Positions 22,323-63,153 of a stretch of DNA of 64,000 bases are shown here, one piece after another (position 1 is the stretch's first letter; each line of letters opens with the position of its first letter). Source of the stretch: Paracoccaceae bacterium (lineage in GTDB: Bacteria; Pseudomonadota; Alphaproteobacteria; Rhodobacterales; Rhodobacteraceae). Under the pieces are notes generated by a model. The model worked only from the letters and a program-made list of their open reading frames with translations. It did no database searches and was not told where the DNA came from. The DNA is taken from assembly GCA_050299555.1 (NCBI GenBank), contig JBNKWA010000077.1, positions 15,490-79,489 on the forward strand, in the 5' to 3' direction. A program made the position numbers and the translations under genes.

Positions 22323-25048
<2,726 letters not shown>

Positions 25049-54666: not shown

Positions 54667-56226
54667 ATGTCCGATCTGTTCGAAGACCCGAGCCCCGGCG
54701 GCAACGCACCGGAATTCACCGTCACCGAGATTTCCGGCGCCGTCCGCCGGGTCATCGAGGGCGAGTTCTCCCGGGTGCGGGTGCGGGGCGAGGTCGGCCG
54801 GGTATCGCGCCCCGGCTCGGGACACCTCTATTTCGACCTCAAGGATGACCGCTCGGTGCTTGCGGCAGTGTCGTGGCGGGCCCAGGCGGCACGCCTCACG
54901 GTCCGGCCCGAAGAGGGCATGGAGGTGATCGCCGTCGGCCGGCTGACCACCTTCGGCGCGCAATCGAAGTACCAGCTCGTGGTCGAGGAACTGCAGCTTG
55001 CGGGGCAGGGGGCACTGCTGGCGATGCTGGAGCGCCGCCGCAAGGCACTGGCGGCCGAGGGGCTGTTCGATTCGGCCCGCAAGCGGCCGCTGCCATACCT
55101 GCCGGCGGTGATCGGGGTCGTCACCTCGCCTTCGGGGGCGGTGATCCGCGACATCCTGCACCGCCTGCGCGACCGATTCCCGCGCGAGGTGCTGGTCTGG
55201 CCGGTGACCGTGCAGGGCACCAGGTGCGCCGACGAGGTGGCCGCCGCCATCCGCGGCTTCAACGCGCTTGCCCCGGGCGGCGCGCTGCCGCGCCCGGACG
55301 TGCTCATCGTTGCCCGGGGCGGCGGCTCGATCGAGGACCTCTGGGGCTTCAACGAGGAGGTCGTGGTGCGCGCCGCCGCGGCCAGCGACATCCCGCTGAT
55401 CTCGGCCGTGGGGCACGAAACCGACACCACGCTGATCGACCTCGCCGCGGATGTGCGGGCGCCGACGCCGACGGCAGCGGCGGAACTGGCGGTGCCGGTC
55501 CGGGCCGAGCTTCTCGCCACCGTCGCCGGGCTGGAGGAGCGCCGCCTGCGCGCCCTGGCCCGTTCCATGGAGCAGGCGCGGCAGCGGCTGCGCGATCTGG
55601 CCCGGGCATTGCCGCGACCCGAGGCGCTGACCGCCGAACGCGGCCAGCAGCTCGACCATCTCGCCACCCGCCACGCCGCGGCGCTGCCGCGCTTCATCGA
55701 CGGCCGGCATCGCCAGCTCGGCGCCATCGCCTTCCGACCGGAACGATTGGAAGGGCTGGTGGCCACCAAGAAGGCCAACCTCGACTCCGTCGCCGAGCGC
55801 CTGTCGACCAGGCTCGGCCGCGTGATCGAGCGCGGGCGCGACCGGTTGGCGGCGCAGCGGCTGTCGCCGGCGCGGCTGGAACAGCGCCGGGCCGAGGCCA
55901 CGCGCGGGCTGCTGCAGACTTCCGAGCGTCTGTCACGCGCCACCGGGGCCCAGCTCGCCGGCTGGCGGGGGCAACTCGACGGGCTCGAGCGGGTGCGCCA
56001 GACCGTCGGATACCGGGCGACGTTGAAACGCGGCTTCGCCGTGGTGCACGGGCCCGGCGGCGTCGTCGCCAGCCGCGATGCCGCGGCGGCCGAGGCGGCG
56101 CTGGAGATCGAGTTCGCCGACGGCCGCCTGCCGGTGGCTCCGGGCAATCCGCCCCCCGAGGCCCCATCCCGGCCGGCGCCGCGCCGAAAGACAGCCAGGG
56201 GCGATCCCCAGGGCAGCCTTTTCTGA
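54667..56226 (+). CDS. xseA: Exodeoxyribonuclease VII large subunit
   Basis: OB fold [28 protein letters not shown], catalytic [16 protein letters not shown], long coiled-coil C-terminus. Confidence 0.95.
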
Positions 56227-56383: not shown

Positions 56384-57157
56384 CTATCCGGCCAGCTCGG
56401 CCCAGACCGGGGCGTGGTCCGAGGCGTTCTCGCGGCCGCGAACGGCCCGATCCACGCCCGAGGCCCTCAGCCGGGGTGCAAGCCCGGGGCTCAAGAGGAT
56501 GCAGTCCAGCCGCAGCCCGGCGTCACGCTCCCAGCGCTGGCGGCGATAGTCCCAGAAGGTGAAGAGCCGCCCCTCGGGCTGGCAGGCCCTGAGCGCTTCG
56601 GTCCAGCCCTGGGCCAGCAACGCCCGGAACCGGTCGCGGACCTCGGGCTGCAGCAGCGCGTTGTCGTCGTACGAACGCGTGGGATAGATGTCGTCCGGCC
56701 CCAGCACGACGTTGAAGTCGCCGGCCAGCGCCACCGGCACACCCTCGGCCAGCAGGCTTTCGGCATGGGCGTTGAGCCGGTCCATCCAGGCAAGCTTGTA
56801 GTCGAATTTCGGCCCCGGCCGCGGGTTGCCGTTCGGTGCATAGACCGACGCGACCAGCACCCCCGCGACGGCGGCCTCGACATAGCGGGCCTGCCGGTCC
56901 GCGTCGTCGCCCGGCAGCGCGGTGCGGGTCAGCACCGGATCGCGGCCGCGGGCAAGGATGGCGACGCCGTTCCAGGTCCGCTCGCCGCACCAGACGGCGC
57001 CATAGCCGGCTTCGGCCAGCGCACTGCGCGGAAACTGCGTGTCGGTCGCCTTCAGCTCCTGCAGGCAGACCGCGTCGGGCTGCGCCTCGGCCAGCCAGTC
57101 CAGGAGGTTCGGCAGCCGCTTGCGGATGTTGTTGATGTTGAAGCTGGCGATCTTCAT
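56384..57157 (-). CDS. xthA: Exodeoxyribonuclease III (AP endonuclease, EEP fold)
   Basis: MKIASFNINNIRKRL...CLQELK...SDHAPVW. The start abuts the stop of the upstream hydrolase gene (TAG then ATG). Confidence 0.95.
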   Translation of the reverse strand: MKIASFNINNIRKRLPNLLDWLAEAQPDAVCLQELKATDTQFPRSALAEAGYGAVWCGERTWNGVAILARGRDPVLTRTALPGDDADRQARYVEAAVAGVLVASVYAPNGNPRPGPKFDYKLAWMDRLNAHAESLLAEGVPVALAGDFNVVLGPDDIYPTRSYDDNALLQPEVRDRFRALLAQGWTEALRACQPEGRLFTFWDYRRQRWERDAGLRLDCILLSPGLAPRLRASGVDRAVRGRENASDHAPVWAELAG

Positions 57158-57790
57158 CTAGCCAAGGCGCGCCGCCCAGCCGGCGACACTGCCGGCCACT
57201 GTCGCCAGATGGTCGGTCGCGGTCAGCCCGGTCAATCGCTTGCGCGGCTTCAGGTCGTGGTCGCCATCCTCCAACCACAGGATCTCGATGGTCGGCGACA
57301 GGGTCAGCGGCGCGATCTCGTCGCGGCTACCGAAGGGGTCGCGGGTGCCCTGACAGATCAGCGCCGGCGTCTGCAGCCCCTCCAGATGCGCGGTGCGCAG
57401 CTGCGCCGGCCGGCCCGGCGGATGGAACGGGTAGCCGAGGCAGACCAGCCCGGCGATGGCGCCTGCGGCGAAAAGTTCGTCCGCGACCATGCTGGCGACC
57501 CTGCCACCCATGGACTTGCCGCCGATGACCAGCGGTGTCGCCGCGCCAAGCGCCGCGACCGCGGCGCGATATTCGGGGATCACCGTCTCGGCCCGGGGCG
57601 GGGGCTTGCGCCGGCCGTCGCGGCGGGCGGCCATGTAAGCGAACTCGAACCGCGCCACGGCAAGACCGGCGGCGACGAAGGCAGCGGTGGCAGCCTCCAG
57701 CGCCGGTGAATCCATCGGCGCGCCGGCGCCGTGGGCCAGAAGCAGCGTCACCGCCGCATCCGCCGGTCCGTCACGCAGAAAGGCGGTCAT
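57158..57790 (-). CDS. Alpha/beta-hydrolase family protein (COG3571-like)
   Basis: The ATG at 57790 overlaps the upstream stop (ATGA). LLLAHGAGAPMDS, nucleophile elbow GGKSMGG, GTRDPFG, DGDHDL. Confidence 0.8.
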   Translation of the reverse strand: MTAFLRDGPADAAVTLLLAHGAGAPMDSPALEAATAAFVAAGLAVARFEFAYMAARRDGRRKPPPRAETVIPEYRAAVAALGAATPLVIGGKSMGGRVASMVADELFAAGAIAGLVCLGYPFHPPGRPAQLRTAHLEGLQTPALICQGTRDPFGSRDEIAPLTLSPTIEILWLEDGDHDLKPRKRLTGLTATDHLATVAGSVAGWAARLG

Positions 57791-58875
57791 CGCACGGCCG
57801 CCTGCAGCGCCACCAACTGCAGCCCCTTGGCGGCGCGGCGGCCCCATTCACTGTCGGGGTCGAGCTCCAGGTAGCGTTCCCACCAGCGCCGGGCCTGGTC
57901 CAGCCGGCCGGAGTCGAATTCCAGCTTGGCGAGGTTGAAGGCGGCGTCGGCATAACCCGGATCCCGTTCCAGCGCCCGGGTCAGGTGGCGCCGCGCGGCC
58001 CCCACATGGCCGCTGTCGCTCATCAGCCCGGCAAGGTTGAACCAGGCCTCGACGAAGCCCGGGTCGATCTTGACCGCGCGGGCATAGTCATGGGTGGCCT
58101 CGGCAGCGCGCCCAAGCTCTCGCAGGCAGTTGGCGCGGTTGAAGGCAGCGACGGAGTCGCCGGGGTCGGCAGCCAGCGCGCGCCCGTAAAGCGTGGCGGC
58201 CTCGGCAAGGTCGCCGTCGGCCTCGGCCGCCTCGGCGGCGGCGAAGAGCGCATCGGGGTCAGCGTCGGCCGCCGGCGCGAGGTCGAGCCGGCCCTGGCCG
58301 TCGAGCTCGGCCGTCCCGGTGCCGTGGCGGGCAACGATCGTGTCATCGCCCGCCAAAGCCAGAGCCTGGGCGGTGAGTGCGGCCGGATCCGCCGCCCGCC
58401 GGACGGCGCGCGCGACCGGCAGCCAGCCGGCGCCGTCGGCGATCAGCCGGGCGTATTTCCGGGCGAGGATGAGATCGCGAAAGCCGAAGGGCCCGGTGTC
58501 GGTCTCGAAGGCGTCGAAGACGGCAAGGAGGTCGAAATCGGCCTCGGCGAGCCCCGACTGGTCGATCAGCCCCCGCCGGGTCAGGGCGGCGGCTTCGGGT
58601 GTTGCGTTAGCCGGCAGGACGCCGAGGCGGCGGAGAAATCCAGCCTCGCTCCAGGCGGCGCAGCCGGCAGCGGTGACGGCGGCAAGGTCGGCGGCAATGG
58701 CCTCGGCATCGGCCCGGTCGAGCAGCCGGCGCCCGAAGACCACGGCGCTGGCGCTGCGGGTCAGGCCGCGCCTCAGCCGGCCGCCCTGGGCCTCCACGGC
58801 GCGCGAGGCCAGGCGCCGCGGCACGGCCTCCAGCGGGCCGATGATTCCCAGCGACTGGCCGTCGAGCGCGGTCAC
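57787..58875 (-). CDS. BRCT-like N-terminal domain + TPR-repeat protein
   Basis: 362 aa. LDGQSLGIIGPLEAVPRRLASRAVEAQGGRLRRGLTRSASAVVFG...W is BRCT-like. The C-terminal half has several TPRs (AEATHDYARAVKIDPGFVEAWFNLAGL..., AFNLAKLEFDSGRLDQARRWWERYLELDP). The start overlaps the ku stop (ATGA). Confidence 0.7.
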   Translation of the reverse strand: MTALDGQSLGIIGPLEAVPRRLASRAVEAQGGRLRRGLTRSASAVVFGRRLLDRADAEAIAADLAAVTAAGCAAWSEAGFLRRLGVLPANATPEAAALTRRGLIDQSGLAEADFDLLAVFDAFETDTGPFGFRDLILARKYARLIADGAGWLPVARAVRRAADPAALTAQALALAGDDTIVARHGTGTAELDGQGRLDLAPAADADPDALFAAAEAAEADGDLAEAATLYGRALAADPGDSVAAFNRANCLRELGRAAEATHDYARAVKIDPGFVEAWFNLAGLMSDSGHVGAARRHLTRALERDPGYADAAFNLAKLEFDSGRLDQARRWWERYLELDPDSEWGRRAAKGLQLVALQAAVR

Positions 58876-59747
58876 TTCCCGGCTTTGCGGCGGGCGCCTC
58901 CGGCGGCCGTCTTGCGCGCCGGCTTCTTCTCGGCGTCGGCCTTGCCGCGGCTTTTCGCCGGCGGTTTCTGCTCGGTCAGGCTGGCCTTCAGCGCATCCAT
59001 GAGGTTGACCACGTTGCCGCGCTCGGGCGCCGCGGCGATGACCGGCGTGTGACCCTTGATCTTGTCGCGGATCATTTCCATCAGCGCCGTCTCATAGCGA
59101 TCCTCGTAGGCCTTGGGATCGAAGCTGGTGGTCTTCTGCTCGATCAGCCTTTCGGCCAGTGCCAGCATGTCGGCATCCGGCTTGCCATCGGGGATGTTCT
59201 CGAAATAGGCAGCGGTGCCGCGCACTTCCGCGGGGTTCCTTAGGGTCTGCACGAACATTCCGTTGTCCAGGGCGCCGATGGTGACCACGCGCTCGCGGCT
59301 GGACAGCACCAGCCGGGCAACGGCCAGCTTGCCGGATTCGCGCAGCGCCTCGCGCAGGACGATGAAGGTCTCCTCGGCCATGGCGCCGTCGGGTGCGAGG
59401 TAATACGGCGCCTCCTGGAAGATCGGCTCGACCTCGTCCGCATCCACAAAGGCCTCGATGTCCAGCGTGTGCCTGGACTCGATCTTCACCGCCTCGAGGT
59501 CCTCATCGGTGATGATGACGTATTTCTTGTCCTCGTACTCGTAGCCCTTGACCAGGTCGGACCGCTCCACCAGCCCCAGCTCCGGGTCGACCGGCTTCAT
59601 GTTGATGCGGTTGTGGGTGTCCTTGTGGAGCTGGTTGAACCGGATCCGCTCGGACGAACTGGTGGCCGGGTAAAGCCGCACCGGACAGGTGACCAGACTC
59701 AGCTTCAGATAGCCCTTCCAGCTTGCGCGTGGCGCCATTGGTGGCAC
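58872..59747 (-). CDS. ku: Ku protein (NHEJ DNA-end-binding) with Lys-rich C-terminal tail
   Basis: ASWKGYLKLSLVTCPVRLYPATS...FNQLH... canonical bacterial Ku. 291 aa. Confidence 0.95.
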   Translation of the reverse strand: MPPMAPRASWKGYLKLSLVTCPVRLYPATSSSERIRFNQLHKDTHNRINMKPVDPELGLVERSDLVKGYEYEDKKYVIITDEDLEAVKIESRHTLDIEAFVDADEVEPIFQEAPYYLAPDGAMAEETFIVLREALRESGKLAVARLVLSSRERVVTIGALDNGMFVQTLRNPAEVRGTAAYFENIPDGKPDADMLALAERLIEQKTTSFDPKAYEDRYETALMEMIRDKIKGHTPVIAAAPERGNVVNLMDALKASLTEQKPPAKSRGKADAEKKPARKTAAGGARRKAGK

Positions 59748-59759
59748 TCCTGTTCTTTT

Positions 59760-62216
59760 TCACAGCCTGATCCTGCCGGTCGGCAAGGCCCGCGCGGCGG
59801 CGTCGATGTCGCGCCACGGGTCGCCTGCCTGCTGCAGAAGCCGCGGCAGGGAAGAATAGTTCAAATCCTCCGGTGCGTCGACGGACTCGAGATCCGGCCA
59901 GTTAATCGGTGCAGATGCCGGCAGACTGGTGCGCGCGCGCAACGAATATGGCGCCGCCGAGGTGGCGCCGCGGACGTTGCGGTGGAAGTCGATGAAGATT
60001 CGCCGCCGTCGCTTGTCCTTGGCCTGGGTGGTGACAAAGGTCTGCGGCTCGGCCCCGGCGATGGCTTCGGCGATTGCGCCGGTGGCGCCGTGCACCTTGT
60101 CCCAGCCGAGCCGGGGCTTGATCGGGACCACGACGTGGATGCCCTTGCCACCCGATGTCTTCACGAACGGTACCAGCCCCAGCCCCTCCAGCACGCCGCG
60201 GATATGGATCGCCGCCTCGACGATCTCGCGCCAGGCGATGCCTTCGCCGGGGTCGAGGTCGAAGGTCACCCGGTCGGGTTTGTCCAGCTGCTGGCGGTGG
60301 CTGCCCCAGCTGTGGAACTCCACCACCCCGAATTGCGCCAGCCCCAGATAGCCGCGGGCGTCCTCGATGGCGATGTAGGATTTGGTCTCGCCGTCCGAGG
60401 TGGTCACCGGAAAGCTCGCCACCGACGGCGGCATCCCGGAAAACGCGTGGCGCTGGAAAAAGCAGTCCTGGGGTCGGCCGGTGGGGCAGCGGATCAGCGA
60501 CACCGGGCGGCCGAGGATGTGCGGCAGCATGAAGTCGCCGACCGACGCGTAGTAGACAGCGACATCGAGCTTGGTGGCGCCGGAGCGGCCGAAAAGGCGA
60601 CGGGTCGGGTTGGTGACCCAGACCGAGGCGAGATCGGCATCCGAGATCAGCCGCTCCCGGGGCGCCGGGTCGGCGGGCGCGAAGGCGACCTCGCGCAGGC
60701 CCTTGAAGACCGCATGGCGGAGCGCGCCCGTCGCCGTTCTCGTCGCATAGTGGACATGGGCGGTCAGCACCGGCCTGACCCAGCGGATACCCTTGGGTGC
60801 CCTGTCGAGCGCCACGCCGCCATCCTCGAGCGGCTGCAGCCGGGCGAGAAGGTCGGCAAGCGTCGCCTCGTCGAAACCGGTGCCGACCTTGCCGACATAA
60901 GCCAGCTCGTCGCCCCGCCATTCGGCCAGCGCCAGCGCGCCCAGGCCGCCGGTCGCCGCCGACGCGGTGAAGCCCGCGATGGCGAAATCGCCCACCTTCA
61001 CCGCCTTCACCTTGAGCCAGCTTCGGGACCGGCCCGGCTGATAGGCCGCATTGCCGCGCTTGGCGATCACCCCCTCCAGCCCCATCTCCGAAACGCGCTC
61101 GAAGAACGCCCCGCCGCCGCCTTCCACGTGGTCGAGATACTGCACCGGCGCGTTGCGGGGCAGGCCCTGCAGCAGCGTGGCCAGCAGCGCCTTGCGGCGG
61201 ACGAGCGGCGCGGCGGTCAGGTCCCAGCCATCGAGAAACGGCAGGTCGAAGGCATAGAAGATCAGCCGCTCGCTCTCCCCCTTCGACAGCGCCTCCTGCA
61301 GCAGCGTCAGGTGGGTGGCGCCGGTCTCGTCCTGCACCACGACCTCGCCGTCGATCACCGCCTCGCGGCAGGGCAGCGCGCCGAAGGCCCCCGCCAGCGC
61401 GCCATAACGCCCGGTCCAGTCCAGCCCGCTGCGGGTGACCAGCCGCGCCTCGCCGCCGGCGATCCGGGCGGTTGTGCGATAACCGTCGAGCTTGATCTCG
61501 TGCAGCCAGTCGTCGCCTTCCGGCGGTGCGGCGGCTGCACTGGCGAGCTGCGGCGGCAGCCGGTCGGGGAGGGGGGCCTTGGCGGCGCCGGGCAGGTTGC
61601 CGGGCCGCAGCGGCCTCGATCTGGCGGGCGTTGGCTCGGTGGGCGGCGGTTCGGCCAGCAGGTCCTCGATCCGGCGCCCGGACTTCACGCTTTCCGGGCG
61701 CGCCTCCAGGACATCCGTCTCCCGGTCTGCCGCCTGGTCGCGCTCCTTGAAGAGCAGCCAGTTGCGCCTGGTCTCGCCGTCCTTGGGCTTCAGCCGGGCC
61801 AGCATCCAGCCGCCCCTCAGCTTCTCGCCGGCAAGGCGGAACTTGAACGCGCCGGCGGCGAGGCTTTCGCCCGGATCCTCCATCGGCGCCCAGGTGCCGG
61901 TGTCCCAGACGATCATCGGCCCGCCACCGTATTCGCCGGCCGGGATGACGCCCTCGAAGTCGATATAGTCGAGCGGGTGGTCCTCGGTCTCCACCGCCAG
62001 CCGCTTGTCGTCTGGGTCAAGCGACGGCCCCTTGGGCACAGCCCAGGATTTCAGCACCCCGTCCAGCTCCAGCCGCAGATCGTAATGGTCGGCGGTGGCA
62101 TGATGCTTGTGAACGACAAAACGGTTGCCGCCCGCCCCGGGCCTGCCGCCCTGCGGCTCGGGCGTGCGGGCGAAGTCGCGCTTGGCGCGATAGCTGTCGA
62201 GTTTCGCCTTGGCCAT
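59760..62216 (-). CDS. ligD: ATP-dependent DNA ligase LigD (phosphoesterase-ligase-polymerase/primase order)
   Basis: ATG at 62216 (MAKAKLDSYRAKRDFARTPEP). PE domain FVVHKHHATADHYDLRLE, adenylation motif EIKLDGYR, Pol domain KTSGGKGIHVVVPI. Confidence 0.95.
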   Translation of the reverse strand: MAKAKLDSYRAKRDFARTPEPQGGRPGAGGNRFVVHKHHATADHYDLRLELDGVLKSWAVPKGPSLDPDDKRLAVETEDHPLDYIDFEGVIPAGEYGGGPMIVWDTGTWAPMEDPGESLAAGAFKFRLAGEKLRGGWMLARLKPKDGETRRNWLLFKERDQAADRETDVLEARPESVKSGRRIEDLLAEPPPTEPTPARSRPLRPGNLPGAAKAPLPDRLPPQLASAAAAPPEGDDWLHEIKLDGYRTTARIAGGEARLVTRSGLDWTGRYGALAGAFGALPCREAVIDGEVVVQDETGATHLTLLQEALSKGESERLIFYAFDLPFLDGWDLTAAPLVRRKALLATLLQGLPRNAPVQYLDHVEGGGGAFFERVSEMGLEGVIAKRGNAAYQPGRSRSWLKVKAVKVGDFAIAGFTASAATGGLGALALAEWRGDELAYVGKVGTGFDEATLADLLARLQPLEDGGVALDRAPKGIRWVRPVLTAHVHYATRTATGALRHAVFKGLREVAFAPADPAPRERLISDADLASVWVTNPTRRLFGRSGATKLDVAVYYASVGDFMLPHILGRPVSLIRCPTGRPQDCFFQRHAFSGMPPSVASFPVTTSDGETKSYIAIEDARGYLGLAQFGVVEFHSWGSHRQQLDKPDRVTFDLDPGEGIAWREIVEAAIHIRGVLEGLGLVPFVKTSGGKGIHVVVPIKPRLGWDKVHGATGAIAEAIAGAEPQTFVTTQAKDKRRRRIFIDFHRNVRGATSAAPYSLRARTSLPASAPINWPDLESVDAPEDLNYSSLPRLLQQAGDPWRDIDAAARALPTGRIRL

Positions 62217-62352
62217 GTTTTCCGGGGCCCGGTGGGACGGTGGGGCCGAGCCTATGGCCTCGGGCCGTGAGGCGGCAAGCGCAAGGATCGGGTTGGCTTT
62301 CCGTGGCCCGGCCTCGATAATCGAGGGGCATTCGGGGCGGGGAGGCCGGGCA

Positions 62353-63153
62353 ATGACTGGGACAGGCACGATTCGCGTCGGCATCGGCGGCTGGACCTTC
62401 GCGCCATGGCGCGGCAGCTTCTATCCCGAGGATCTGACGCAGAAGCGCGAGCTGGAATACGCGGCCAGCAAGCTGACCTCGATCGAGATCAACGGCACCT
62501 ACTACGGCTCGCAAAAGCCCGAGAGCTTCCGCCGCTGGCACGACGAAACGCCGGACGGGTTCATGTTCGCGGTCAAGGGGCCGCGCTTTGCCACCAACCG
62601 CCGGGTCCTGGGCGAGGCCGGCGAATCGATCGACCGGTTCTTTTCCAGCGGCCTGCTGGAGCTGAAGGACAAGCTGGGGCCGGTGAACTGGCAGTTCATG
62701 GCCACCAAGGCCTTCGATCCGGAGGATTTCGAGGCGTTCCTGAGCCTTCTGCCTACGTCGCTGGACGGGCGGGCCCTGCGCCATGCGGTCGAGGTGCGGC
62801 ACGACAGCTTCCGGGTGCCGGAATTCGTGGCGCTGGCGCGCAAGTATGGCGTGGCGGTGATCGCGGCGGCGGACGGCAAGTACCCGCAGATCGCCGATGT
62901 GACGGCGGATTTCGTCTATGCGCGGATCATGGGGACGACCAAGGGCGAGGCCGAGGGATATCCGGCGGCTGCGCTCGATGCCTGGGCGGCGCGGGCCATG
63001 GCCTGGGCGGGAGGCGCGGTGCCCGAAGGGCTGGAGCGGGCGTCGGAAACGGACGCGGCGCCGGGTCCGCGGGACGTCTTCCTCTACGTGATCAGCGGCA
63101 ACAAGGTGGCGAACCCGGCGGCGGCGATGGCACTGATCCGGCGGCTGAGCTGA
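62353..63153 (+). CDS. DUF72 (YecE-like) family protein
   Basis: ATG at 62353. IRVGIGGWTFAPWRGSFYPEDL...LTSIEINGTYY DUF72 signature. Divergent from ligD. Confidence 0.9.
   Translation: MTGTGTIRVGIGGWTFAPWRGSFYPEDLTQKRELEYAASKLTSIEINGTYYGSQKPESFRRWHDETPDGFMFAVKGPRFATNRRVLGEAGESIDRFFSSGLLELKDKLGPVNWQFMATKAFDPEDFEAFLSLLPTSLDGRALRHAVEVRHDSFRVPEFVALARKYGVAVIAAADGKYPQIADVTADFVYARIMGTTKGEAEGYPAAALDAWAARAMAWAGGAVPEGLERASETDAAPGPRDVFLYVISGNKVANPAAAMALIRRLS

Follow-up and report, generated by a model that had tools for sequence, protein, structure and literature searches.

A Ku-coupled BRCT–HTH–TPR protein as a candidate accessory factor of bacterial non-homologous end joining

Introduction

Teaching and modelling treat bacterial non-homologous end joining (NHEJ) as a process of two proteins, Ku and LigD. 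Here we analyze a stretch of 64,000 nucleotides from an alphaproteobacterium (Paracoccaceae bacterium, GenBank assembly GCA_050299555.1, contig JBNKWA010000077.1, positions 15,490 to 79,489; hereafter the window) in which a gene directly behind ku encodes a protein that we call X. A preliminary description of this DNA had read X as a BRCT domain joined to tetratricopeptide repeats (TPR) and had likened it to the BRCT proteins that organize end joining in eukaryotes. Drawing on family profiles, structure models and the gene neighborhoods of relatives, we examine the domains of X, trace its association with ku and ligD through three clades of the family and weigh the functions that it may have. 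The literature searches that we made returned no paper on the X family and no published test of its role in end joining.

Organization of the gene cluster

In the open reading frame (ORF) list of the window, X occupies 57787-58875 on the (-) strand, has 362 residues and starts with GTG. As the preliminary description had proposed, this is a real gene directly behind ku: read in the DNA, its GTG shares bases with the ku stop codon (GTGA, in the context …GAA GTG A…). At the other end, the TGA of X shares bases with the ATG of the gene that follows, which encodes an α/β-hydrolase (ATGA at 57787-57790, in the context …GCG ATG A…, with the ATG at 57790). X is thus translationally coupled to ku through the GTGA overlap and to the hydrolase gene through the ATGA overlap. 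The whole cluster, in the order ligD-ku-X-hydrolase-xth, consists of five tightly packed genes on one strand, with 12 nt separating ligD from ku (Table 1). The listed ligD ORF matches NCBIfam TIGR02776 with 667 bits from residue 57 onward, and the true start of ligD is probably Met57 of that ORF, at ~62216.

Table 1. Genes of the cluster and predicted domains of X, in window coordinates.
Feature	Position	Strand	Description and evidence
ligD	59760..62384	(-)	Full-length; phosphoesterase, ligase and primase-polymerase domains; Pfam LigD_N, DNA_ligase_A_M/C, LigD_Prim-Pol
ku	58872..59747	(-)	TIGR02772 Ku_bact 289 bits; Pfam Ku 1.4e-43
X (BRCT–MerR-like HTH–β unit–TPR)	57787..58875	(-)	ORF, relatives, AlphaFold2 model
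X, predicted BRCT of LigA/RFC1 class, aa 1-88	58612..58875	(-)	Profile versus PDB; model topology
X, predicted degenerate MerR-type winged HTH, aa ~96-168	58372..58590	(-)	hhalign to clade-3 domain
X, three-stranded β unit, aa 169-204	58264..58371	(-)	Model; no family assignment
X, TPR domain, strongly acidic, aa 205-362	57790..58263	(-)	Pfam, Foldseek
α/β-hydrolase Abhydrolase_11 (PF20408)	57158..57790	(-)	Pfam 1.6e-68; GKSMG nucleophile motif
xth, exodeoxyribonuclease III; closes the cluster	56384..57157	(-)	TIGR00195 211 bits

The BRCT domain

When X alone is compared with Pfam and NCBIfam, only TPR models are returned, with BRCT and MerR undetected at E<=1. Both domains are invisible in direct scans of the single protein, so family profiles were needed to detect them. 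A phmmer search of PDB sequences with the first 211 residues gave only sub-significant matches, three of the six being BRCT domains (RFC1, Pol μ) at E 0.6-1.1. A profile of 28 family N-termini of ~88 residues recovered from PDB the BRCT domains of LigA (9vse, 5.6e-7) and RFC1 (2ebu/2k6g, 7e-6), followed by those of Thermus thermophilus LigA (1l7b, 5e-5) and Escherichia coli LigA (2owo, 1e-3), and nothing besides BRCT domains was significant. The same set was matched by a broader profile that included the diverged clades, at 3.4e-7 to 4.5e-6 (LigA 9vse at 3.4e-7, RFC1 2ebu at 6e-7). Scanned individually, the 28 N-termini gave weak PF00533 matches in eight cases and PTCB-BRCT in six, with no other recurrent family, and relatives in clade 2 (described below) exceed the PF00533 gathering score, with 24.9-28.6 bits against 21.3.

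An AlphaFold2 model of X built on the family alignment has a mean predicted local distance difference test score (pLDDT) of 93.4, and residues 8-83 score 90-98. The elements modelled in this stretch are a strand at 8-12, a helix at 20-29, strands at 33-36 and 44-47, a helix at 51-69, a strand at 73-76 and a helix at 77-83; they match the β1-α1-β2-β3-α2-β4-α3 order of BRCT domains by secondary structure, not by superposition. A Foldseek search with the full model left the N-terminus uninformed, since the top 50 matches are all TPR proteins or O-GlcNAc transferase (OGT). Taken together, profiles and model predict that the N-terminus of X adopts a BRCT fold, as the preliminary description had held for roughly the first 85 residues; the conserved Trp that it included in the BRCT pattern did not hold up, W75 being Trp in only 4 of 111 clade members. 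The aromatic position of α3, F80, is Phe in 85 of the 111 and Leu in 22, and aligns with the Phe/Leu of LigA and RFC1. Across the family the domain is strongly basic, with a mean net charge of +7.8. On profile evidence, X carries a single BRCT domain of the DNA-binding class of LigA and RFC1 and is not a relative of the BRCT domains of Lig4, XRCC1 or Pol λ/μ.

The phosphate pocket of RFC1, whose residues are reported by Kobayashi et al. (2006) as T415, G416, R423 and K458, was transferred to the family through profile alignments; its canonical form has Ser/Thr-Gly behind β1 and a Lys or Arg where α2 begins. The equivalent residues read T-G-R-K in clade 2, T-G-(R/P)-R in clade 3 and (V/I/L)-G-R-R in the clade of the window; in the window X itself they are I12, G13, R20 and R40. 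In RFC1, DNA ends are bound through the conserved pocket that takes phosphopeptides in other BRCT domains (PMC6334254, citing Kobayashi 2006).

A degenerate MerR-type domain and a β unit

The preliminary description named both terminal domains of X correctly, but its two-module layout passed over a helix-turn-helix (HTH) of MerR type and a β unit that lie between them. No motif of the family is more conserved than one in this middle segment, which reads LFDxFE…F-F-R-D-L-x-x-A-R…G-A and is followed by an invariant G-Q. Searches started from the window clade gave little: weak MerR_1 matches to Pfam in 2 of 26 middle segments, and no match of the middle-domain profile to PDB sequences. A separate AlphaFold model of residues 90-208 (pLDDT 88) returned ~22 MerR-family proteins among 34 Foldseek matches (TnrA, GlnR, PbrR, MerR, CueR, SoxR, NmlR, CvkR, CbpM, Rv1828), all weak (E 0.86-10, template modelling score 0.4-0.6), a list that is suggestive only. 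The diverged relatives carry the assignment. Over nearly its whole length, Pfam MerR_1 (PF13411; gathering score 21.6) is passed by several clade-3 proteins with 27.8-31.6 bits and by one clade-2 protein with 26.7, and hhalign joins the window-clade segment to that of clade 3 with a probability of 98.1% (E 8e-14, 64 columns). Because the relatives pass MerR_1 and hhalign ties the window clade to clade 3, we assign residues ~96-168 of X, by transitive profile match, as a MerR-type winged HTH.

In the window clade this domain is degenerate, having lost both the basic recognition residues and the dimerizing helix. The recognition-helix sequence LRRWE of clade 3 aligns to DFDLLA, the domain is about neutral (net charge about -1), and in place of the long dimerizing helix of MerR regulators the model of X has short helices and three β strands. 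The HTH is internal in X, not N-terminal. We considered X as a bona fide MerR-family regulator and rejected this, as two defining features failed, namely an N-terminal HTH with a dimerizing helix and the recognition residues. The three strands (171-175, 179-184 and 187-190) belong to a β unit that is conserved across all three clades and holds the invariant G193-Q194; for this unit (residues 169-204) neither PDB nor Pfam gave a match in sequence or structure.

The TPR domain and the Ku tail

The C-terminal part of X is recognized by Pfam without the help of family profiles (TPR_2, E 2e-24 over four stretches, with TPR_1, TPR_8 and others), the repeats covering residues ~205-345. There are four to five repeats with a capping helix, seen in the model as paired helices from 207 to 338, and Foldseek matches them to consensus TPR and to the TPR of OGT at E ~1e-8. 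The family mean net charge of this domain is -8.6.

The Ku protein of the window ends in a Lys/Arg-rich tail (…ARRKAGK), and so does every linked Ku that we inspected. A search for a shared C-terminal Ku motif that could serve as the TPR ligand found none common to the three clades, only generic Lys/Arg-rich tails. An Asn ladder as the signature of peptide binding by the TPR was dropped from consideration, its position fitting the general TPR consensus, to which Asn at this position belongs. Database labels of the relatives follow single domains: some are annotated as DNA polymerase III subunit epsilon, by way of the BRCT domain, and others as O-linked GlcNAc transferase, by way of the TPR (examples are P0288, TWT44690.1 of Phycisphaerae bacterium RAS1, and P0036 of a Bauldia sp. 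metagenome-assembled genome, MAG). We set the O-GlcNAc transferase annotations aside, as they reflect TPR similarity only.

Conservation of the ku–X pair

Relatives of X occur in at least 226 GTDB species. For neighbor counts in clade 1, that of the window, one genome per GTDB species was scanned and the best 80 loci were taken, from Hyphomicrobiales and Rhodobacterales; they come from Mesorhizobium, Sinorhizobium/Ensifer, Aminobacter, Devosia, Chelativorans, Amaricoccus and related MAGs, and are 50-58% identical to X. Compared by tblastn with the neighbors in the window, 79 of these 80 loci have Ku directly upstream of X, and in the sole remaining locus the match begins 385 nt from the end of the contig. 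LigD lies upstream of Ku in 74, while Abhydrolase_11 and Xth follow X in 78 and 75, respectively. The annotated pSymB-type megaplasmid of Sinorhizobium meliloti shows the same series as ligD, Ku protein, tetratricopeptide repeat protein, alpha/beta hydrolase and xth. The window Ku is 81.7% identical to the Ku of S. meliloti 1021 pSymB, and for X the identity to the S. meliloti orthologue is only ~56%; judged from these sequences, X has a much higher rate of evolution than its coupled partner. The pSymB locus of X, with ligD upstream of ku as described for ligD2 and ku2 (PMC6379672), is presumably ku2/ligD2.

Beyond this clade, profile searching brought out a large clade 2 of proteins of ~350 residues and 27-31% identity, including those of Xanthobacteraceae MAGs, in which Ku lies directly upstream of X in every context read and LigD lies downstream. 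In one clade-2 locus LigD is 5.6 kb off and Ku and X are still adjacent. The ku/X overlap of an intermediate lineage (P0033) is 4 nt. Clade 3 emerged when 1.84 billion cluster representatives were searched exhaustively with a profile, which 99 of them matched at E<=1e-30 and 736 at E<=1e-10. Its proteins have 380-480 residues and the canonical MerR motif, and its named members belong to Planctomycetota (Phycisphaerales; Phycisphaerae bacterium RAS1). A metagenome scan for this clade gave 80 loci. Of the 53 informative ones, whose upstream sequence extends to 900 nt or more, 35 have Ku directly upstream, 46 contain Ku and/or LigD or a stand-alone ligase-domain gene, and seven show no NHEJ gene. 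The relatives of X are therefore not scattered but linked to ku/ligD in each clade, a check that the preliminary description had proposed. The invariant unit is the pair of ku followed by X.

Several observations on individual loci accompany these counts. In clade 2, gene callers begin X at an internal Met and so lose β1 of the BRCT domain (L082 1779-1846; L084 6936-7000; L086 6915-7000). Upstream of that Met and in frame with it, the DNA encodes a conserved peptide, L(E/Q/K)GTVAFTGRLAS, that shows synonymous changes, and no ATG, GTG or TTG separates it from the ku stop. The start of X in clade 2 is likely a CTG that overlaps the ku TGA (cTGA), which suggests a non-canonical, translationally coupled initiation in that clade. 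Among the clade-3 loci, L099, L101 and L102, and likewise L091, L107, L117, L118, L137 and L152, carry a stand-alone gene for the LigD ligase domain (~LigD residues 272-563), which in some loci sits between Ku and X and in others, where no Ku is seen, directly upstream of X; such loci are split-LigD versions of the module. The hydrolase moves as well: Abhydrolase_11 often follows LigD in the rearranged clusters of clade 2, and it follows X in several clade-3 loci. An α/β-hydrolase linked to NHEJ is without obvious precedent, and this one may be an end-cleaning enzyme.

Other features of the window

The remaining neighbors in the window, DUF72, XseA and PurD, were found by tblastn in 0 of the 80 clade-1 loci and are therefore not part of the module. 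The listed ORFs of ligD (start 62384) and of the divergent DUF72 (start 62209) overlap only because the ORF lister opts for the earliest start; matches to the families set in at LigD Met57 (~62216) and at DUF72 residue ~48-72, leaving a divergent intergenic gap of ~130 bp. A single σ70-like site is found in the ligD/DUF72 intergenic region, at 62293-62321 (+). The only match in the window to an EcfG/RpoE2-type promoter (GGAAC-N15-18-CGTT), at 24691, is unrelated and at chance level, and no informative promoter or terminator was detected inside the cluster. The region of the cluster has 72-74% G+C, and the long ORFs on its opposite strand were discarded as unsupported and as expected at this composition. 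ARAGORN calls a tRNA-Gln(ctg) at 54996-55085 (+), within the xseA coding region; Rfam at gathering score reports no tRNA there, and the call is probably a false positive.

We also considered membership of X in an anti-phage defence system and rejected it after a PADLOC scan, in which X gave only a weak match of its TPR region to a PrimPol model (6e-6, residues 240-314) and Ku and the hydrolase gave no matches.

Proposed function and alternative readings

The three-module architecture of X and its association with NHEJ we regard as close to certain. From them we propose, with a probability of about 0.6, that X is a dedicated NHEJ accessory factor that acts at the break as a partner of Ku and LigD, a scaffold function argued from gene linkage and domain chemistry only. 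X would be made from the same transcript as Ku. We give less weight to the particular contacts that follow. Its BRCT domain would contact the DNA of the break, at the duplex end, a nick or a 5'-phosphate, in the manner of the BRCT domains of LigA and RFC1, and from its sequence class such binding of ends or nicks is a more likely role for it than scaffolding of the eukaryotic type. The acidic groove of the TPR would hold a partner peptide, the obvious candidate being the Lys/Arg-rich C-terminal tail of Ku, with LigD, the co-encoded Abhydrolase_11 and ExoIII as alternative partners. In this way X could keep the enzymes of end cleaning and ligation attached to ends that Ku has bound, or could stabilize the synapse, and the degenerate HTH could supply a non-specific DNA contact or an interface.

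Several points weigh against this proposal. The canonical pocket of RFC1 is incomplete in the window X, where Thr is replaced by Ile12 while the Gly and the basic residue are retained, and because the pocket Thr is Val, Ile or Leu throughout the window clade, recognition of a 5'-phosphate may be weakened or lost there. The MerR-like domain is about neutral and lacks the RRW/YE recognition residues, and the proposal does not explain its role. The predicted template modelling score of the full model is 0.59, leaving the relative arrangement of the domains undefined. Basic Ku tails are common in bacteria without X, making the charge complementarity of TPR and tail weak evidence. Finally, among PLSDB plasmids full-length X is found in 87 records and Ku in 684; X is present at only some of the Ku loci and is therefore not generally required for NHEJ.

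The same evidence can be read in other ways. Since regulator genes often adjoin their targets, X might be a transcription factor of MerR type that senses DNA damage through its BRCT domain, its TPR or both and regulates the NHEJ operon instead of acting at the break. Clade 3 and one clade-2 member do pass the MerR_1 threshold, clade 3 keeps LRRWE, and passages of a study of S. meliloti report that ku2 is stress-induced from its own promoter (PMC6379672). The domain itself argues otherwise: the basic residues of the recognition helix are replaced in the window clade (DFDLLA) and in clade 2 (DQLAMF), leaving it about neutral, β strands stand where the dimerizing coiled-coil helix should be, and the HTH is central where that of a regulator would be N-terminal. 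Translational coupling to Ku, moreover, implies near-stoichiometric synthesis, which is unusual for a regulator. We judge this reading improbable overall, weakened for the window clade and more credible for clade 3. It also seems an unlikely account, to about the same degree, that X modulates or chaperones Ku, its acidic TPR holding the Ku tail so as to limit loading, to unload Ku after ligation or to restrain NHEJ during growth. The tight coupling is with Ku specifically, with LigD lying upstream, downstream or 5 kb away; the acidic TPR faces a basic tail; and X diverges faster than Ku (56% versus 82% identity to S. meliloti). Such a role would, however, leave unexplained both the basic BRCT domain of DNA-ligase type and the co-conservation of two putative end-processing enzymes.

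X could, lastly, be an ordinary TPR protein of unrelated role that came to lie behind ku by a lineage-specific accident, as its database label of tetratricopeptide repeat protein and its absence from most Ku loci would allow. We consider this highly improbable. The adjacency to Ku persists in three clades at identities as low as ~26%, in two phyla and despite the reshuffling of gene order; a linkage that survives divergence, change of phylum and rearrangement points to a shared function rather than to a chance position. The N-terminal two thirds of the protein, furthermore, consist of domains associated with nucleic acids.

If X is indeed an accessory factor at the break, a wider picture can be sketched, which we offer tentatively and regard as rather less likely than the proposal on X itself: Hyphomicrobiales, Rhodobacterales, Planctomycetota and others may run a multi-component NHEJ in which X binds the end and the Ku tail and recruits the serine hydrolase and ExoIII for end cleaning. 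Bacteria would in that case have assembled independently a counterpart to scaffolding of the XRCC1/XRCC4 type, and the main NHEJ pathway of S. meliloti would then have an unrecognized subunit that is essential or determines fidelity. The conservation of the X family, its coupling to Ku, its domains and the two putative end-processing enzymes conserved with it together point to an overlooked accessory layer of NHEJ among a large group of bacteria, soil dwellers and symbionts, and the family would offer an evolutionary data point on the recruitment of BRCT domains to end joining. According to a 2023 review, most bacteria have only one or two BRCT proteins, namely DNA ligase and a subunit of Pol III (PMC10386641); X would join LigA and the Pol III ε-type proteins as a third widespread one.

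S. meliloti offers a direct test of these proposals, as the quantitative plasmid-repair, I-SceI and ionizing-radiation assays described in passages of Dupuy et al. (PMC6379672) already exist. In those passages Ku2/LigD2 is the main NHEJ pathway, with the two genes side by side and ligD2 upstream. In the passages located by term search, the genes downstream of ku2/ligD2 are neither mentioned nor treated as part of NHEJ. The same passages report that ectopic ku2 returns repair in a ku2 mutant to near wild-type, a rescue that speaks neither for nor against a role of X.

Comparison with known systems

The closest known domains are the C-terminal BRCT of LigA and the BRCT of RFC1 (p140), which are the best and only significant profile matches of the BRCT domain of X. 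Like them it is a single basic domain, with the motif hydrophobic-(T)G-L…R-x-x-A…GG-k/r-v…(S/T)-(K/R)-x-T…vvG, and clades 2 and 3 of the family retain the T-G…R…K/R pocket described for RFC1 in passages of PMC6334254. Unlike them, it is N-terminal on a non-enzymatic protein, has an insertion of ~9 residues in the α2 region and, in the window clade, has Ile, Val or Leu for the pocket Thr. With the MerR family, and especially with its minimal members TnrA and GlnR, X shares a homologous winged-HTH core of α1-α2-wing-α3-α4, but the domain of X lacks the C-terminal coiled coil and the basic and aromatic recognition residues, and is internal, flanked by BRCT and TPR.

The likeness to eukaryotic repair scaffolds that the preliminary description had drawn is one of logic. 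As with XRCC1, a BRCT domain is joined to an interaction module and co-encoded with end-processing enzymes, and here it is genetically tied to Ku end joining. A Ku-coupled protein of BRCT and TPR does exist, but X has no specific sequence relationship to XRCC1, DNA ligase IV, Pol λ/μ or TdT, has a single BRCT where eukaryotic repair scaffolds have a tandem pair, and pairs it with a TPR, a module that those proteins lack. The parallel is an analogy at most, not homology of the system.

The operon itself resembles the canonical NHEJ systems of Mycobacterium, Pseudomonas, Bacillus subtilis and S. meliloti (Ku2/LigD2) in holding Ku and a three-domain LigD together, and differs from them in three more conserved genes, those of X, Abhydrolase_11 and Xth. 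What is new here is thus a Ku/LigD module that comes with a conserved, uncharacterized BRCT–HTH–TPR partner and with two conserved, putative end-processing enzymes.

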